This document shows, one piece after another, positions 3,111-10,080 of a stretch of DNA of 10,080 bases. How positions within the stretch are numbered: position 1 is the first letter of the stretch; each line of letters starts with the position of its first letter. The position numbers and the translations under genes are program-made. The notes below the pieces were generated by a model, which made no database searches, was not told where the DNA came from, and saw only the letters and a program-made list of their open reading frames with translations. The stretch is from the UHGV virus genome UHGV-1553573; one strand, 5' to 3'. Origin of the DNA: a virus.

Positions 3111-3206
3111 GGTAAGCCCTGTTATTAGTATTGGGGTTACGGTCATTTTGTGCTGACACAAAAAAAAGATCAACCAGATTTGGTTTTTTATTACCTTTGA
3201 GGTACG

Positions 3207-3260: not shown

Positions 3261-3491
3261 TCATGAGTAGAAGAAGTATGCCAGTTCTGCTTTTGAGCGC
3301 AGCCATTGTCTTGTTTTACAGGCTTTAAAAAGCCCATTCATCAATACCTTACCTGGCATTTTGCGCTTACCTGTTAAGTGAGTCTGGATATAGTGACTCG
3401 TCGTTCCGGCTTCCTGTGCGAAGGCTTCACGCTCATCCGGAGTAAGTGCAAGCCAGTGCTTTTTGAAATCGAAATGTCCGTTATCGCTCAT
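3261..3491 (-). CDS. Cro/YdaS-like small HTH DNA-binding protein (76 aa)
   Basis: ORF track entry; the segment FAQEAGTTSHYIQTHLTGKRKMP resembles the Cro/YdaS-type helix-turn-helix; transcribed divergently from the repressor-like gene and upstream of the O/P genes, i.e. the cro position. Confidence 0.6.
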   Translation of the reverse strand: MSDNGHFDFKKHWLALTPDEREAFAQEAGTTSHYIQTHLTGKRKMPGKVLMNGLFKACKTRQWLRSKAELAYFFYS

Positions 3492-3645
3492 AGCTATTGC
3501 CTGATATTTATTTCAGATAATAAATATTCACCCATAAGGTAACAAAAATCAAGGATAGTTACCTATGGGGTGCATTTACCTGTTGGGTAATATTGCTTTA
3601 AATTGAATCATCTACTGATTCATATATGAGGCGATTTTCCAGAAA
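3492..3645. promoter_or_regulatory. Divergent promoter/operator region between the Cro-like and repressor-like genes (OR-like)
   Basis: Three clustered palindromes of the TTACC-N5-GGTAA family at 3528-3542 (TCACC CATAA GGTAA), 3559-3573 (TTACC TATGG GGTGC, degenerate) and 3576-3590 (TTACC TGTTG GGTAA, perfect); a perfect 9-bp AT-rich inverted repeat at 3504-3512/3519-3527; AT-rich hexamers usable as -10/-35 on both strands. Confidence 0.6.
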
Positions 3646-4230
3646 ATGAAAAGTATCCAGGACGTCCGCAGGCAAAATCTCAACGACTTGATCGACCGTG
3701 AATTCAATGGTGTTCAGACGCGGATGGCAGAAAAACTTGGAACTCAGGCAAATCTGGTAAACCGCTGGGCTCTTGGCAAGAAGGTTATCGGCGACCAGGT
3801 TGCACGAAAAATTGAAGCTGCCGCCAATAAACCCCGTAACTGGCTTGATATCGATCGCTCGCTTTCTCAGGAAGGTTTTCAGCCTGTCGGCCCAAGCGAC
3901 ATTGGTCAGCTGGCGGCTCACAACCTGGAACGCTGGATGAGCGAAAGCCGCGACCTTTCAACGCAGGGAAAACTTCACCGCGCATCCGGCGTCGCCCAGG
4001 TGACAATCAGTCGCCTGTTAAACAATGAGGTCAGCGTTTCCATTTCCACCCTGGAGAATGTTGCATCCGCATTCGGGCGTCACGGCTATGAATTACTGAT
4101 TCACCCGCACGACCCTGCGACCATCAACTATGACCGCTCGCGCTACGCATTGTTACCCGAAACCGAGAAAGCAAAGATCGAAAGTTACATTGAATTTGTC
4201 ATCAACCAGAACGAAAAAAACAAACAATAA
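3646..4230 (+). CDS. Tandem helix-turn-helix (XRE-type) repressor-like protein, 194 aa, with no peptidase domain
   Basis: Two HTH-like segments: QTRMAEKLGTQANLVNRWALGKK near the N-terminus and ASGVAQVTISRLLNNEVSVSISTLENVASAFG in the second half. No S24-peptidase-like C-terminal domain is apparent. Sits in the cI position; weak or absent Shine-Dalgarno before the ATG at 3646. Confidence 0.7.
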   Translation: MKSIQDVRRQNLNDLIDREFNGVQTRMAEKLGTQANLVNRWALGKKVIGDQVARKIEAAANKPRNWLDIDRSLSQEGFQPVGPSDIGQLAAHNLERWMSESRDLSTQGKLHRASGVAQVTISRLLNNEVSVSISTLENVASAFGRHGYELLIHPHDPATINYDRSRYALLPETEKAKIESYIEFVINQNEKNKQ

Positions 4231-4287: not shown

Positions 4288-4364
4288 TTACCTAATGGGT
4301 AATTTTTTTAACTCATATCTATTGACATCAAACCAAATACGCATAATTATTACCTCAACGGTAA
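4288..4364 (+). promoter_or_regulatory. Strong rightward promoter with two flanking operator palindromes (OL/PL-like)
   Basis: Perfect -35 TTGACA at 4322-4327, 15-16 nt spacer, then ATAATT/TAATTA at 4343-4349; perfect palindromes at 4288-4302 (TTACC TAATG GGTAA) upstream and 4350-4364 (TTACC TCAAC GGTAA) over the predicted start site. Confidence 0.6.
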
Positions 4365-6619: not shown

Positions 6620-6868
6620 ATGAAAGGTGCATTAGGTAAGAAAGAACTCCTGGCGGTGGTGCCACTGTCATGGAGCACTATCGACCGTATGGAGCGCGCA
6701 GGGGAATTTCCTAAACGCTGGTATATCACCGATAAACGCTGCGCATGGAACCGTGATGAAGTTGAGCGTTGGCTTGATGAACGTCAGGCAGCAAGCCCGG
6801 CAGAGTTCCAGGGTAAAAAGCCTCCTGTTCAGCAACGTGTATATCGTCCCGTGAGCAACGCTGCATGA
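6620..6868 (+). CDS. AlpA-family phage transcriptional regulator / excisionase-like DNA-binding protein, 82 aa
   Basis: LLAVVPLSWSTIDRMERAGEFPKRWYITDKRCAWNRDEVERWLDE fits the AlpA/Xis-type pattern (S-x-S-T-I, FPK, W...EV..WL); AGAGAGG 5 nt upstream of the ATG. Confidence 0.7.
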   Translation: MKGALGKKELLAVVPLSWSTIDRMERAGEFPKRWYITDKRCAWNRDEVERWLDERQAASPAEFQGKKPPVQQRVYRPVSNAA

Positions 6869-7277: not shown

Positions 7278-7920
7278 GAAATACACACTAATCTATGCAG
7301 ATCCACCCTGGGTATACCGGGACAAAGCCGCAGATGGTAATCGCGGTGCCGGTTTTAAATATCCGGTTATGAGTGTGCTGGATATCTGCCGCCTTCCTGT
7401 GTGGGATTTGGCCGATGAAAACTGTCTGTTGGCCATGTGGTGGGTGCCAACACAACCACTCGAAGCACTAAAAGTTGTTGAAGCCTGGGGATTCCGTCTG
7501 ATGACGATGAAGGGCTTCACGTGGATAAAATGTGGTAGTCGACAACCAGATAAACTGGTTATGGGTATGGGACACATGACTCGCGCCAATAGTGAAGATT
7601 GCCTGTTTGCGGTAAAGGGAAAACTACCTACGCGCATTAATGCAGGGATCGTTCAGTCATTTACCGCACCGCGGCTTGAGCATTCAAGAAAGCCAGATAT
7701 CGTTCGTGAAAAACTTGTGCAATTATTAGGCGATGTTTCTCGCATTGAACTGTTCGCCCGCCAGACGTCTCATGGCTTCGATGTTTGGGGTAATCAGTGC
7801 GAAGACCCGGCAGTGCAACTACACCCTGGATACGCGTTGGATATCGGCGGATTAACAAATGCATTCAGCAATGCTCCGCTGTCACCAACAGACAACCAGG
7901 GGCGGGAGCGTGCAGCATGA
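7270..7920 (+). CDS. MT-A70-family N6-adenine DNA methyltransferase with no restriction partner in the window
   Basis: N-terminal [10 protein letters not shown] (DPPW catalytic motif) and later EHSRKP, both typical of this family. Start placed at the ATG at 7270 ([14 protein letters not shown]) rather than the track's GTG at 7258; stop overlaps the phosphatase start. Confidence 0.75.
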
Positions 7921-8576
7921 ACCTATATCAACGCATCAATGGCGCTGACTGGTGCAATATCTTCGTCGTCGGCGATCTGCATGGGTGCTACACGCTGCTG
8001 ATGAACGAACTCGACAAAGTTTCATTCGACCCGGCGCGCGATTTGCTTATTTCCGTTGGTGACCTTGTTGACCGCGGCGCTGAAAACGTCGAATGCCTGG
8101 ATTTGATTACTATGCCGTGGTTCCGAGCTGTTCGTGGCAACCATGAGCAGATGATGCTGGATGCACTGGTCAACGGCGGAAGTTTCGGACATTGGATGTC
8201 AAACGGCGGTGGATGGTGGCACCAACTTGATTCTGAGCAGGATGTGCAACTCAAATACCTTCTGCCAAAGGTTACCAACCTCCCGATGATTATCGAACTG
8301 GTTACCGGCAATAAGAAGGTCGTCATCTGCCACGCAGACTACCCGCACAACGAATACGCATTCGATAAGCCAGTACCGGAAGAAATGGTGATATGGAATC
8401 GTGAGCGGGTTAGCGACGCGCAGGACGGTATTGTCTCGGAGATAACCGGTGCCGATTTGTTCATCTTCGGTCATACGCCAGCACATCACCCACTGGTGTA
8501 TGCAAACCAAATGTACATCGACACCGGCGCAGTGTTCTGCGGAAATCTGACGCTTACCAAAGTCCAGGAAGGATAG
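7917..8576 (+). CDS. Lambda-type Ser/Thr protein phosphatase (PPP-family metallophosphatase), 219 aa
   Basis: GDLHG, GDLVDRG and GNHE motifs plus the extended run [17 protein letters not shown]...[14 protein letters not shown]...VICHADYP...FIFGHTP...[16 protein letters not shown], which matches lambda phosphatase as I recall it. Start at the ATG at 7917, overlapping the methyltransferase stop (ATGA). Confidence 0.85.
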
Positions 8577-8578
8577 AA

Positions 8579-9835
8579 TTATTTATTACTGTCTTCCATC
8601 CACTTCTCAAACTTCGACGGGGAGAACGGAATCAGATCCGTATGCTCCCCGTTAATCCAGGAATCAATCATATCGGCCCACTGCTGCAACATGTAGGCGC
8701 GCTGTCTGGCGTATTCCGCTTTGTTATATACGGCGCGCACACCTTTCTGCTCGTGTGCCAGAGCCTTTTCAATCCAGTCTGAAGGATAACCAGCCTCATG
8801 CAACAATGTACTGGCTGTACGGCGCATATCATGTACAGTAAAATCCTGAATATGCTCACCATCTTCATTTATTATTTTCACCGTTCTGTCGATCAGAGAG
8901 TTCAGCGCGGCATTAGATAATGGCTTCCGGAAATTGTAACGACCAGGAACCAGATATTCACTTCCACCAGCGCACATCTGCAACCCGACTAATATATCCT
9001 GTGCCTGTTTAGGCAGGTAAATAACGTGCGCCCGACTTCCCTTCATGCGGTCTGAAGGAATTGTCCATGTCCATTTTTTAAAATCTATTTCATCCCACGT
9101 TGCATTGGTGAATTCTCCCTTACGAACCATGGTGATAAGCACCAGCTTTAAAGCCATTTTCATAGTGCCCATAGCACCAATGGCATCCAGCGTGCGGAAG
9201 AACAGGCCAATTTCTTCTGGTGTCAGTGTTCGCTCTCGTGGTTTAAATATGGCGATAGACGAAGGTTTAATGTCAGCCGCAGGATTAAACAAACCATGAC
9301 CACGGTCATTGGCGTGACGGTATACGCTGCTGATGATCTCCCTGGCCTGTACTGCTGTTGCCCGACCACCGCGTTCGACAATCCGGTCACACAAATCACG
9401 AACCATTGATGTGGTAATTTCAGCCATCATTTTGTTGCCAAGAACCGGAAGTATGTCACGGTCGATCACCGCCTGCTTCATTGCGCGGGTACTGTCAGCC
9501 AGGATGACGTGTTTCATATAACTGTCGGTATGTACCGCAAACGTCTCGGCACCACGAATCTTTTTAATACCGTCACGTTTAGCCGCAGCCGGTGACTGGC
9601 CTGCTTTAAGCAGCTTCTTTGCAGCAATCAGTTCTTCTCGCGCTTCTGCCAGGCTGATACCGTCACGCCCATACTGCCCGATTACCAGTGTTTCGCGGCG
9701 ACCGTTGATACGGTAGTCATAGCGAAACGAGACCGTGCCTGACGTAAGCACAGCTACATACAGCCCGTCACGATCGGAGACCTTGTACAGTTTGTCCTGC
9801 GGCTTGAGGTTTTTTAATTTTGTATCGGTAAGCAC
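8579..9835 (-). CDS. int: P4-type tyrosine integrase, 418 aa
   Basis: N-terminus LTDTKLKNLKPQDKLYKVSDRDGLYVAV is typical of P4-like integrase arm domains; C-terminal HDMRRT ... ALAHEQKGVRAVYNKAEY fits the H-x-x-R ... Y catalytic region. GTG start at 9833-9835 with GGGTGA upstream; convergent with the phosphatase gene, 2 bp apart. Confidence 0.85.
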   Translation of the reverse strand: MLTDTKLKNLKPQDKLYKVSDRDGLYVAVLTSGTVSFRYDYRINGRRETLVIGQYGRDGISLAEAREELIAAKKLLKAGQSPAAAKRDGIKKIRGAETFAVHTDSYMKHVILADSTRAMKQAVIDRDILPVLGNKMMAEITTSMVRDLCDRIVERGGRATAVQAREIISSVYRHANDRGHGLFNPAADIKPSSIAIFKPRERTLTPEEIGLFFRTLDAIGAMGTMKMALKLVLITMVRKGEFTNATWDEIDFKKWTWTIPSDRMKGSRAHVIYLPKQAQDILVGLQMCAGGSEYLVPGRYNFRKPLSNAALNSLIDRTVKIINEDGEHIQDFTVHDMRRTASTLLHEAGYPSDWIEKALAHEQKGVRAVYNKAEYARQRAYMLQQWADMIDSWINGEHTDLIPFSPSKFEKWMEDSNK

Positions 9836-9948
9836 AATTCACCCGTATAGAAACCATTTTCATGACGGTATGAGAGTATACCTTTAAGGTAATACCGTCA
9901 CCTGTACCGACGAAAAATATGGTGTAGAGTGAATAGAAATGAATACAT
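9836..9948 (-). promoter_or_regulatory. Integrase upstream region: candidate int promoter, operator-like palindrome and nested inverted repeats (possible att-proximal sequence)
   Basis: On the minus strand TATACT (plus 9875-9880) is a near-consensus -10; ATACC TTTAA GGTAA at 9878-9892 is a one-mismatch member of the operator family; a 9-bp inverted repeat TGACGGTAT / ATACCGTCA (9863-9871 and 9892-9900) brackets it. Confidence 0.35.
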
Positions 9949-9979
9949 AAAAACAAAAACCCTCTGTAAAAACAGAGGG
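9949..9979 (-). terminator. Intrinsic terminator for the gene entering from the right edge
   Basis: 7-bp stem CCCTCTG / CAGAGGG (9960-9966 and 9973-9979, loop TAAAAA) followed on the minus strand by TTTTTGTTTTT. Confidence 0.55.
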
Positions 9980-10027
9980 TTAAATTAGTATCTGAATAGG
10001 AATGAGTTGCTATGAGTTAGCTGTTAA

Positions 10028-10080
10028 TCATTCCCACTCAATGGTAGCTGGCGGCTTGCCGCTGATGTCATACACCACGC
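10028..10080 (-). CDS. 3' end of a probable chromosomal gene (last 16 codons only)
   Basis: Minus-strand frame reads VVYDISGKPPATIEWE then stop (TGA at plus 10028-10030), followed 50 nt downstream by the terminator. Too short to identify. Confidence 0.25.
   Translation of the reverse strand, partial: VVYDISGKPPATIEWE

Follow-up and report, generated by a model that had tools for sequence, protein, structure and literature searches.

The phages phiV10, epsilon15, and vB_EcoP_ZX5 are the closest described relatives of the locus analyzed here. The ZX5 paper gave attgagtgggaatgatt as the attachment core of phiV10 and epsilon15, confirmed the same core for ZX5 by junction PCR and sequencing, and showed excision and integration at this site experimentally. 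Site-specific recombination at GAGTGGGA has been shown experimentally for the genomic island GIsul2. In the intS/attL region of KplE1 (HK620-type) and in the int region of P4, the int promoter is located inside the att arm and is repressed by Int and the excision factor.

We analyzed a 10,080-nucleotide stretch of viral DNA (UHGV virus genome UHGV-1553573; hereafter the window), in particular positions 9836–10080. The window shared with phiV10, epsilon15, and ZX5 the same 17-bp core, an int gene about 190 bp away from it, the same terminator, and the same ATACCGTCAC repeats, and it differed from them in being another mosaic, as seen, for example, in the complete phosphatase gene beside int. 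GIsul2, likened to the window by target and core alone, also uses guaA and has its core inside the 17-bp core, but it is a resistance island and not a phage. As in KplE1 and P4, a dedicated promoter, here putative, lies among arm-type sites and directs int transcription away from the core, the excision-factor gene is located elsewhere and is separately transcribed, and Int has a P4-like architecture. In contrast to these two systems, the target is the protein-coding gene guaA and not a tRNA gene, a further dyad resembling a repressor operator lies over the putative promoter, and the arm has a built-in terminator; autoregulation of int would follow KplE1 and P4 by analogy. No tRNA or tmRNA gene was found when the window was searched for them; P4-like integrases usually target tRNA genes. 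The locus resembles lambda attP in that the integrase is heterobivalent and a short core is flanked on each side by arm-type repeats. Unlike lambda, in which int is expressed from pL/pI, the int gene of the window has its own putative promoter in the arm, two arm-type copies are located inside the int coding sequence, and the IHF consensus WATCAANNNNTTR had no match in the arm or elsewhere in the att region; the IHF sites annotated in epsilon15 were unsupported here.

Over most of its length, the window was 97–98% identical at the DNA level to phages of the phiV10 type (Uetakevirus), and the matches included phiV10, PAS61, ZX5, phiv142-3, and TL-2011b. No record in the E. coli collection searched was identical to the whole window. 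The int-guaA junction, scored when at least 80% of 9700–10080 was covered, was present in 569 of 5426 complete E. coli genomes, that is, in about one of ten. The remaining genomes matched only from 10026 rightward and represent the empty site. Positions 10043–10080 were matched in all 5426 genomes and belong to guaA, the 3′ end of which occupies 10029–10080 on the minus strand (stop codon at 10029–10031, followed by 16 codons; guaA in all matching E. coli annotations). The distance from the guaA end to the int start was 192 nt. These results support the earlier note, which had proposed from the sequence a prophage/chromosome junction beside int, and the element does not run on past 10080. The assignment of the junction and its core is nearly certain. 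When combined with the model of int control described below, the reading of 9836–10080 as the integrase-proximal att junction of a phiV10/epsilon15-type prophage in the guaA 3′ end is still quite probable. In E. coli 214-4, the segment equivalent to 9700–10080 was 100% identical to that of the window.

The crossover region was a 17-bp att core, AATCATTCCCACTCAAT, located at 10026–10042. Its limits were set by overlap, since phage genomes matched up to 10042 and empty sites matched from 10026. Direct comparison of the sequences revealed the identical 17 bp at three places. For attB, the empty site of strain T16R has ...GGGTCAA-ATCATTCCCACTCAAT-GGTAGC; for attP, phiV10 has ...GCTGTTA-ATCATTCCCACTCAAT-TATTTAC; and the far junction, taken from the IAI39 prophage, has host-AATCATTCCCACTCAAT-TATTTAC. 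The direct repeat expected at the far prophage end was therefore found in IAI39, the unoccupied site was found in the empty-site E. coli genomes matching from 10026, and the flanking gene was identified as guaA by the annotation of the matching E. coli genomes. The reverse complement of the core is attgagtgggaatgatt, the same as the published core. The core spans the guaA stop codon and the last four codons. By this comparison, recombination is shown to have occurred within the 17 bp at 10026–10042, with the phage copy restoring the guaA stop codon and the four codons before it, and guaA remains intact in lysogens. The same alignments show that all sequence left of the core is phage DNA. The prophage boundary in the window can thus be placed exactly at 10026–10042, slightly off the interval of about 9900–10030 suggested previously, and inside guaA rather than before the last 16 codons of the minus-strand gene. 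At the core, the sequence CCCACTC is flanked by AATCATT on one side and by AATTATT (attP) or AATGGTA (attB) on the other, as read from the sequence, and it is a possible 7-bp overlap between imperfect inverted core sites. At the IAI39 far junction (locus L004 1–3189), IS3 fragments and a group II intron came before the host gene yfgI (DUF5384), which was truncated, indicating that the host flank has been rearranged.

The int gene (8579–9835, minus strand, GTG start at 9835), identified from the list of open reading frames and by Pfam, encodes a tyrosine integrase of 418 amino acid residues. Pfam detected the domains Arm-DNA-bind_3 (E = 3.9e-20), Phage_int_M, and Phage_integrase, corresponding to the arm-binding, core-binding, and catalytic domains of a heterobivalent tyrosine integrase of the P4/lambda Int type. 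The GTG start is supported because 28 relatives start at the same codon, which is GTG or, in distant ones, ATG. A Shine-Dalgarno-like GGGTGA was read at 9839–9844 on the minus strand, with the block TTCACCCGT invariant in seven phages. The int gene is convergent with the early operon bearing the gene for an AlpA-like excision factor (6620–6868; AlpA family) and for this reason requires a promoter of its own within the arm. On its 3′ side, the neighboring gene is mosaic: a serine/threonine phosphatase of 259 amino acid residues (7797–8576) is encoded in the window, versus a small DUF1382 protein in phiV10 (locus L002 8785–8979), and the last Int residues differ according to which of the two is the neighbor. 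The phosphatase gene beside int is intact in the window, whereas in E. coli 214-4 it was interrupted by a nest of IS66-family elements of about 8 kb (locus L001 3827–12115).

A phage-borne intrinsic terminator was located in the arm at 9948–9981 on the minus strand, with a stem-loop at 9958–9981 and a T tail extending to 9948. It consists of a 10-pair stem and TTTGTTTTTA on the minus strand, which agrees with the features of an intrinsic terminator, and it formed in the minimum free energy fold. The phage terminator and the native E. coli guaA terminator were identical at 25 of 27 positions, the pair reading AAAAACCCTCTGTA-AA/GT-AACAGAGGGTT. Terminators with an unrelated stem sequence were found in the same place and direction in guaA-adjacent elements of Morganella, Edwardsiella, Oceanimonas, Chromobacterium, Aquitalea, and Rhodocyclaceae. 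In Pantoea, a hairpin and a T run were visible, but its 9-nt loop placed it below the criteria of the script for a terminator. Because a terminator occupied this position in nearly every lineage, it is regarded as a functional part of the arm. It likely serves to end the transcription of guaA (or of the phage late genes) and to insulate int, as judged from its placement.

The terminator was flanked by two direct repeats on the plus strand, R1 (TGAATAGAAATGA, 9930–9942) and R2 (TGAATAGGAATGA, 9993–10005), both of which were conserved in seven phages. R1 was assigned to repeat family D1 and R2 to families D1 and I2, R2 being an imperfect inverted copy of the core as well. Other lineages had different repeats in the same two positions, and the flanking repeat was lineage-specific: TGAATAGRAATGA in the window, CAATCGTTA(TC/AA)AA in Pantoea and Rahnella, and TTAAAAACWATAG in Morganella. 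It may be a site for an excision factor or an extra core-type site for Int. Elements of Citrobacter sedlakii and Edwardsiella piscicida shared about 100 identical bp from the terminator to the core, located some 100–200 nt upstream of int, while their arms and integrases differed, and the int open reading frame of the E. piscicida element (locus L025) was short, with 1017 nt. This pattern suggests recent exchange or decay.

Upstream of int, a 9-nt inverted repeat was formed by TGACGGTAT (9863–9871) and ATACCGTCA (9892–9900), which are 100% complementary and 20 nt apart, with GGTAT...ATACC between the palindrome arms. This repeat and its inner GGTAT...ATACC, the operator-like dyad, TATACT, the terminator, and the end of the minus-strand gene were all recovered where the earlier note had described them. 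The two palindrome arms are two copies of ATACCGTCA(C). Five perfect copies of ATACCGTCA were present in the window, all within 9314–9900, and 10 copies with at most one mismatch were observed against 1.58 expected, a number reached in none of 200 shuffles. The 10-mer ATACCGTCAC was found on the plus strand at 9892, 9657, and 9567. The right palindrome arm (9892–9901, plus strand) is the arm-type site ATACCGTCAC and was invariant in all 16 aligned sequences. The left arm (9863–9871, with ATACCGTCA on the minus strand) is an inverted, weaker copy that varied in relatives. A degenerate second copy, GTACCGAC, followed by an A-tract, lies 12 bp after the first (9904–9911, plus strand), and its equivalent was perfect in Klebsiella relatives. 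On the far (Rz) side of the core in attP, the motif was also present, as GTACCGTTTTATATACCGTCACC, and was invariant in seven phages; the arm-type repeats are thus placed on both sides of the core, as in systems with a heterobivalent integrase. Tandem pairs with the same 12-bp spacing were found in relatives from Morganella, Edwardsiella, Oceanimonas, and Chromobacterium. Upstream (A/T)TACCGTCA repeats were also kept by integrase relatives with as little as about 57% identity, whose upstream regions were otherwise unalignable; usually, two tandem copies with a 12-bp spacing stood before an A-tract, and an inverted copy lay nearer to int. The epsilon15 GenBank record labels these exact 10-mers, including the equivalent of the right palindrome arm, as integrase binding sites, an annotation that is itself a prediction.

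Two ATACCGTCAC copies on the plus strand inside int, site A (9657–9666) and site B (9567–9576), are probable distal arm-type sites and are both annotated for the integrase in epsilon15, site B as a protein_bind feature. Codon constraint was assessed in 18 int genes with pairwise identities of 69–98%, in which the third base was invariant in only 9.6% of the codons with a conserved amino acid. The run GAC GGT ATC of site A was the only three-codon stretch in the gene with invariant third positions, and the T preceding GAC was retained despite variation of the amino acid among R, C, I, P, and A. In site B, GAC GGT was invariant in the 18 genes and CGT was retained in 16 of them. Constraint thus acts on both intragenic copies at the DNA level. 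In epsilon15 Int, codon 57 at site A encodes Cys (TGT) instead of the Arg (CGT) found elsewhere, and the TGACGGTAT DNA motif is unbroken. A third intragenic copy (9314–9323, minus strand) was rejected as a functional site, its synonymous positions varying freely among relatives. Because the motif recurs on either side of the core, and relatives also have it upstream of int, the palindrome arms are most likely arm-type sites, and the ATACCGTCA(C) repeats are quite likely to be bound by the N-terminal domain of Int. The suggestion that the palindromes may be integrase sites has accordingly gained support from the enrichment of the motif, its copies on both sides of the core, its conservation down to about 57% identity, and the codon constraint; it is weakened by the distance of 370–470 bp between the intragenic sites and the core, which is unusually long, and by the poor conservation of the left palindrome arm.

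The putative −10 element of the int promoter, TATACT (9875–9880, minus strand), was read from the sequence and lies between the sites at 9863–9871 and 9892–9901, a geometry compatible with an int promoter inside the arm as in KplE1 and P4. Its equivalent in epsilon15 is TATAAT, and two relatives end the hexamer with C or G. The best −35-like sequence was GTGACG, with a 15-nt spacer, located inside the arm site at 9892–9901. A sigma-70 consensus scan of 9600–10080 called no promoter, because an acceptable −35 is missing 16–18 nt upstream of TATACT. A near-consensus −10 overlapping the palindrome, as proposed previously, is thus present, and it lacks a proper −35. An int promoter at this place is plausible but would be weak and may need an activator, and we make its exact assignment only tentatively.

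The operator-like dyad ATACC-TTTAA-GGTAA (ATACCTTTAAGGTAA, 9878–9892) matched TTACC-N5-GGTAA, the operator dyad of the epsilon15/SPC32H-type repressor Rep, at 9 of 10 positions, and the single mismatch, ATACC for TTACC, was the same in all relatives. Eight sites with at most one mismatch to TTACC-N5-GGTAA were present in the window against 0.14 expected. They included two pairs spaced 61–62 bp apart (1173–1187 with 1234–1248, and 4288–4302 with 4350–4364), sites at 3528 and 3576 (within 3528–3590), a single dyad at 3191–3205 adjoining a terminator-like hairpin, and the int dyad itself. A further dyad with two mismatches was found at 3559. The cluster of three dyads at 3528–3590 lies between the divergent repressor (3646–4230) and cro-like (3261–3491) genes, and the operator layout was the same in phiV10, epsilon15, SPN1S, and Tyrion. 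The motif also marks the epsilon15 sites annotated as "repressor" and recurs in phiV10, SPN1S, and Tyrion. In the 16 aligned sequences upstream of int, the ATACC and GGTAA half-sites were invariant, and seven forms of the five-base spacer were found across all relatives examined. In Pantoea and Rahnella relatives, which have Rep-type operator clusters and unalignable int leaders, a dyad was found upstream of int with one and two mismatches, respectively. None of nine loci from relatives without Rep-type operators had such a dyad. The ECE228 junction (85% identity) was considered as a case of a different immunity type and rejected, as it was of the same phage type and had the same dyad. With constrained half-sites, a free spacer, and a presence tied to the Rep-type immunity region, the int dyad in these respects resembles a Rep operator. 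Rep reportedly binds paired palindromes as a tetramer; no partner for the int dyad was found at the spacing of about 62 bp or elsewhere within 62 bp of 9878, and single operator sites occur elsewhere in these phages. On balance, we slightly favor the prediction that 9878–9892 is a weak repressor operator. The proposal that int is under the same repressor therefore has good comparative support in the invariant half-sites and their co-occurrence with Rep-type operators and is plausible, while the site itself is single and imperfect.

Other readings of these elements were weighed against the same evidence. According to the layout in the earlier note, the terminator (9949–9979) and all sequence to its right would be chromosomal and the crossover would lie within 9900–10030. 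The terminator does look like a host guaA terminator; however, the entire 9836–10042, terminator included, occurs in free phage genomes, and its annotated presence in those of phiV10 and epsilon15 identifies the terminator as phage DNA. Empty sites, moreover, have nothing in common with the window to the left of 10026. The comparisons of empty sites, phages, attP, and the far junction refute this layout, to which we assign a negligible probability. Another reading takes the inverted repeat as an RNA hairpin, processed by RNase III to control int mRNA. The epsilon15 record marks the equivalent of 9862–9900 as "RNaseIII, mRNA processing", and the minus-strand RNA of 9836–9990 folded at −43.5 kcal/mol (z = −5.2), but the terminator hairpin supplies much of this folding energy, most read-through RNA should end at that upstream terminator, and, if the −10 at 9875–9880 is real, the transcript would begin near 9868 and would not contain the right arm. 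None of the nine pairs was compensated, and six of the nine varied solely by breaking, with the left arm drifting among relatives and the right arm never changing. No Rfam family exceeded its threshold; at permissive E-values, sub-threshold matches alone were obtained, riding on the terminator hairpin. The hairpin, or a retroregulatory element, was consequently rejected for want of covariation and is improbable. Binding of the palindrome by a dimeric accessory regulator instead of Int, such as the AlpA-like excision factor (6620–6868) or a PerC-like activator, is equally improbable, although the 9-bp dyad is perfect, an AlpA-family gene is present, and the KplE1 excision factor also binds beside the int promoter. 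The motif occurs mostly as direct repeats (in tandem pairs with a 12-bp spacing, beyond the core, and within the int gene), its dyad symmetry is not conserved, and it tracks the integrase across elements of differing gene content to about 57% identity. The most suitable reading of the palindrome is a pair of protein sites that differ in strength, not an RNA hairpin.

The operator likeness of 9878–9892 could also be a side effect, with ATACC kept through the overlapping −10 and GGTAA through the adjoining arm site, so that int would be controlled by Int, perhaps with the AlpA-like factor, and no repressor would take part. The int dyad is single and has one mismatch, whereas the main operators are paired 61–62 bp apart; the −10 that it overlaps and the arm site next to it may account for part of its conservation; none of the five repressor sites in the epsilon15 record is upstream of int; and the KplE1 paradigm works without a repressor. 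However, GGT was invariant at the dyad even though the other arm copies are preceded by ATAT, TTTA, or GCTG, and the neighboring arm site therefore does not explain its invariance. The spacer, too, was free to vary while neither half-site ever did, and the side-effect reading does not account for the dyads of the unalignable Pantoea and Rahnella relatives or for their absence in all nine relatives without Rep-type operators. Single operator matches elsewhere in epsilon15 are, in addition, accepted as repressor sites. We consider a mere side effect unlikely, and a weak Rep operator remains our preferred reading of the dyad.

Taken together with this operator, the arrangement suggests how int might be regulated. 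In the free phage, the arm terminator would end the lysis operon. After integration, the same terminator (9948–9981) would replace the native guaA terminator and shield int from read-through, and the lysis operon would run on to the native guaA terminator, now located at the far junction. The free-phage and native terminators would thus exchange partners on integration, so that two near-identical terminators are swapped. Int bound at 9863–9871 and 9892–9911 would bracket the int promoter, and because the putative promoter lies between two arm sites, binding of Int should reduce transcription of int, the effect shown for IntS of KplE1. Rep at the dyad, centered near −17, would switch int off in lysogens and free it upon infection or induction, adding lysogen-specific silencing to Int autoregulation. 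We tentatively propose, as a possibility with odds somewhat short of even, that the int promoter is under double control by a weak Rep operator on the −10/−35 spacer and by flanking Int arm sites, within a conserved att-arm layout. This layout (tandem arm sites, a lineage-specific repeat, an int-facing terminator, the same repeat, and the core) may be common to a guaA-targeting family in Gamma- and Betaproteobacteria. In Chromobacterium, Aquitalea, and a Rhodocyclaceae metagenome-assembled genome, integrase relatives (57–58% identity) were located about 295 nt downstream of a guaA-like gene end (...EWE*), and from these Betaproteobacterial loci, this integrase family can be seen to use the guaA 3′ end very widely as its target.

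Earlier publications already cover the att core, the target gene, and the phage family. The new points are small: int likely has a Rep operator, the arm sites inside int are under constraint, and the terminator is conserved and swappable. Beyond housekeeping, the significance of the junction is small. The double control, the arm layout, and the terminator swap are absent from the ZX5 paper and from the annotated epsilon15 and phiV10 GenBank records. If true, these points would add detail to the KplE1-type model of integrase regulation, and they would be useful in designing integration vectors and reporter phages based on phiV10.
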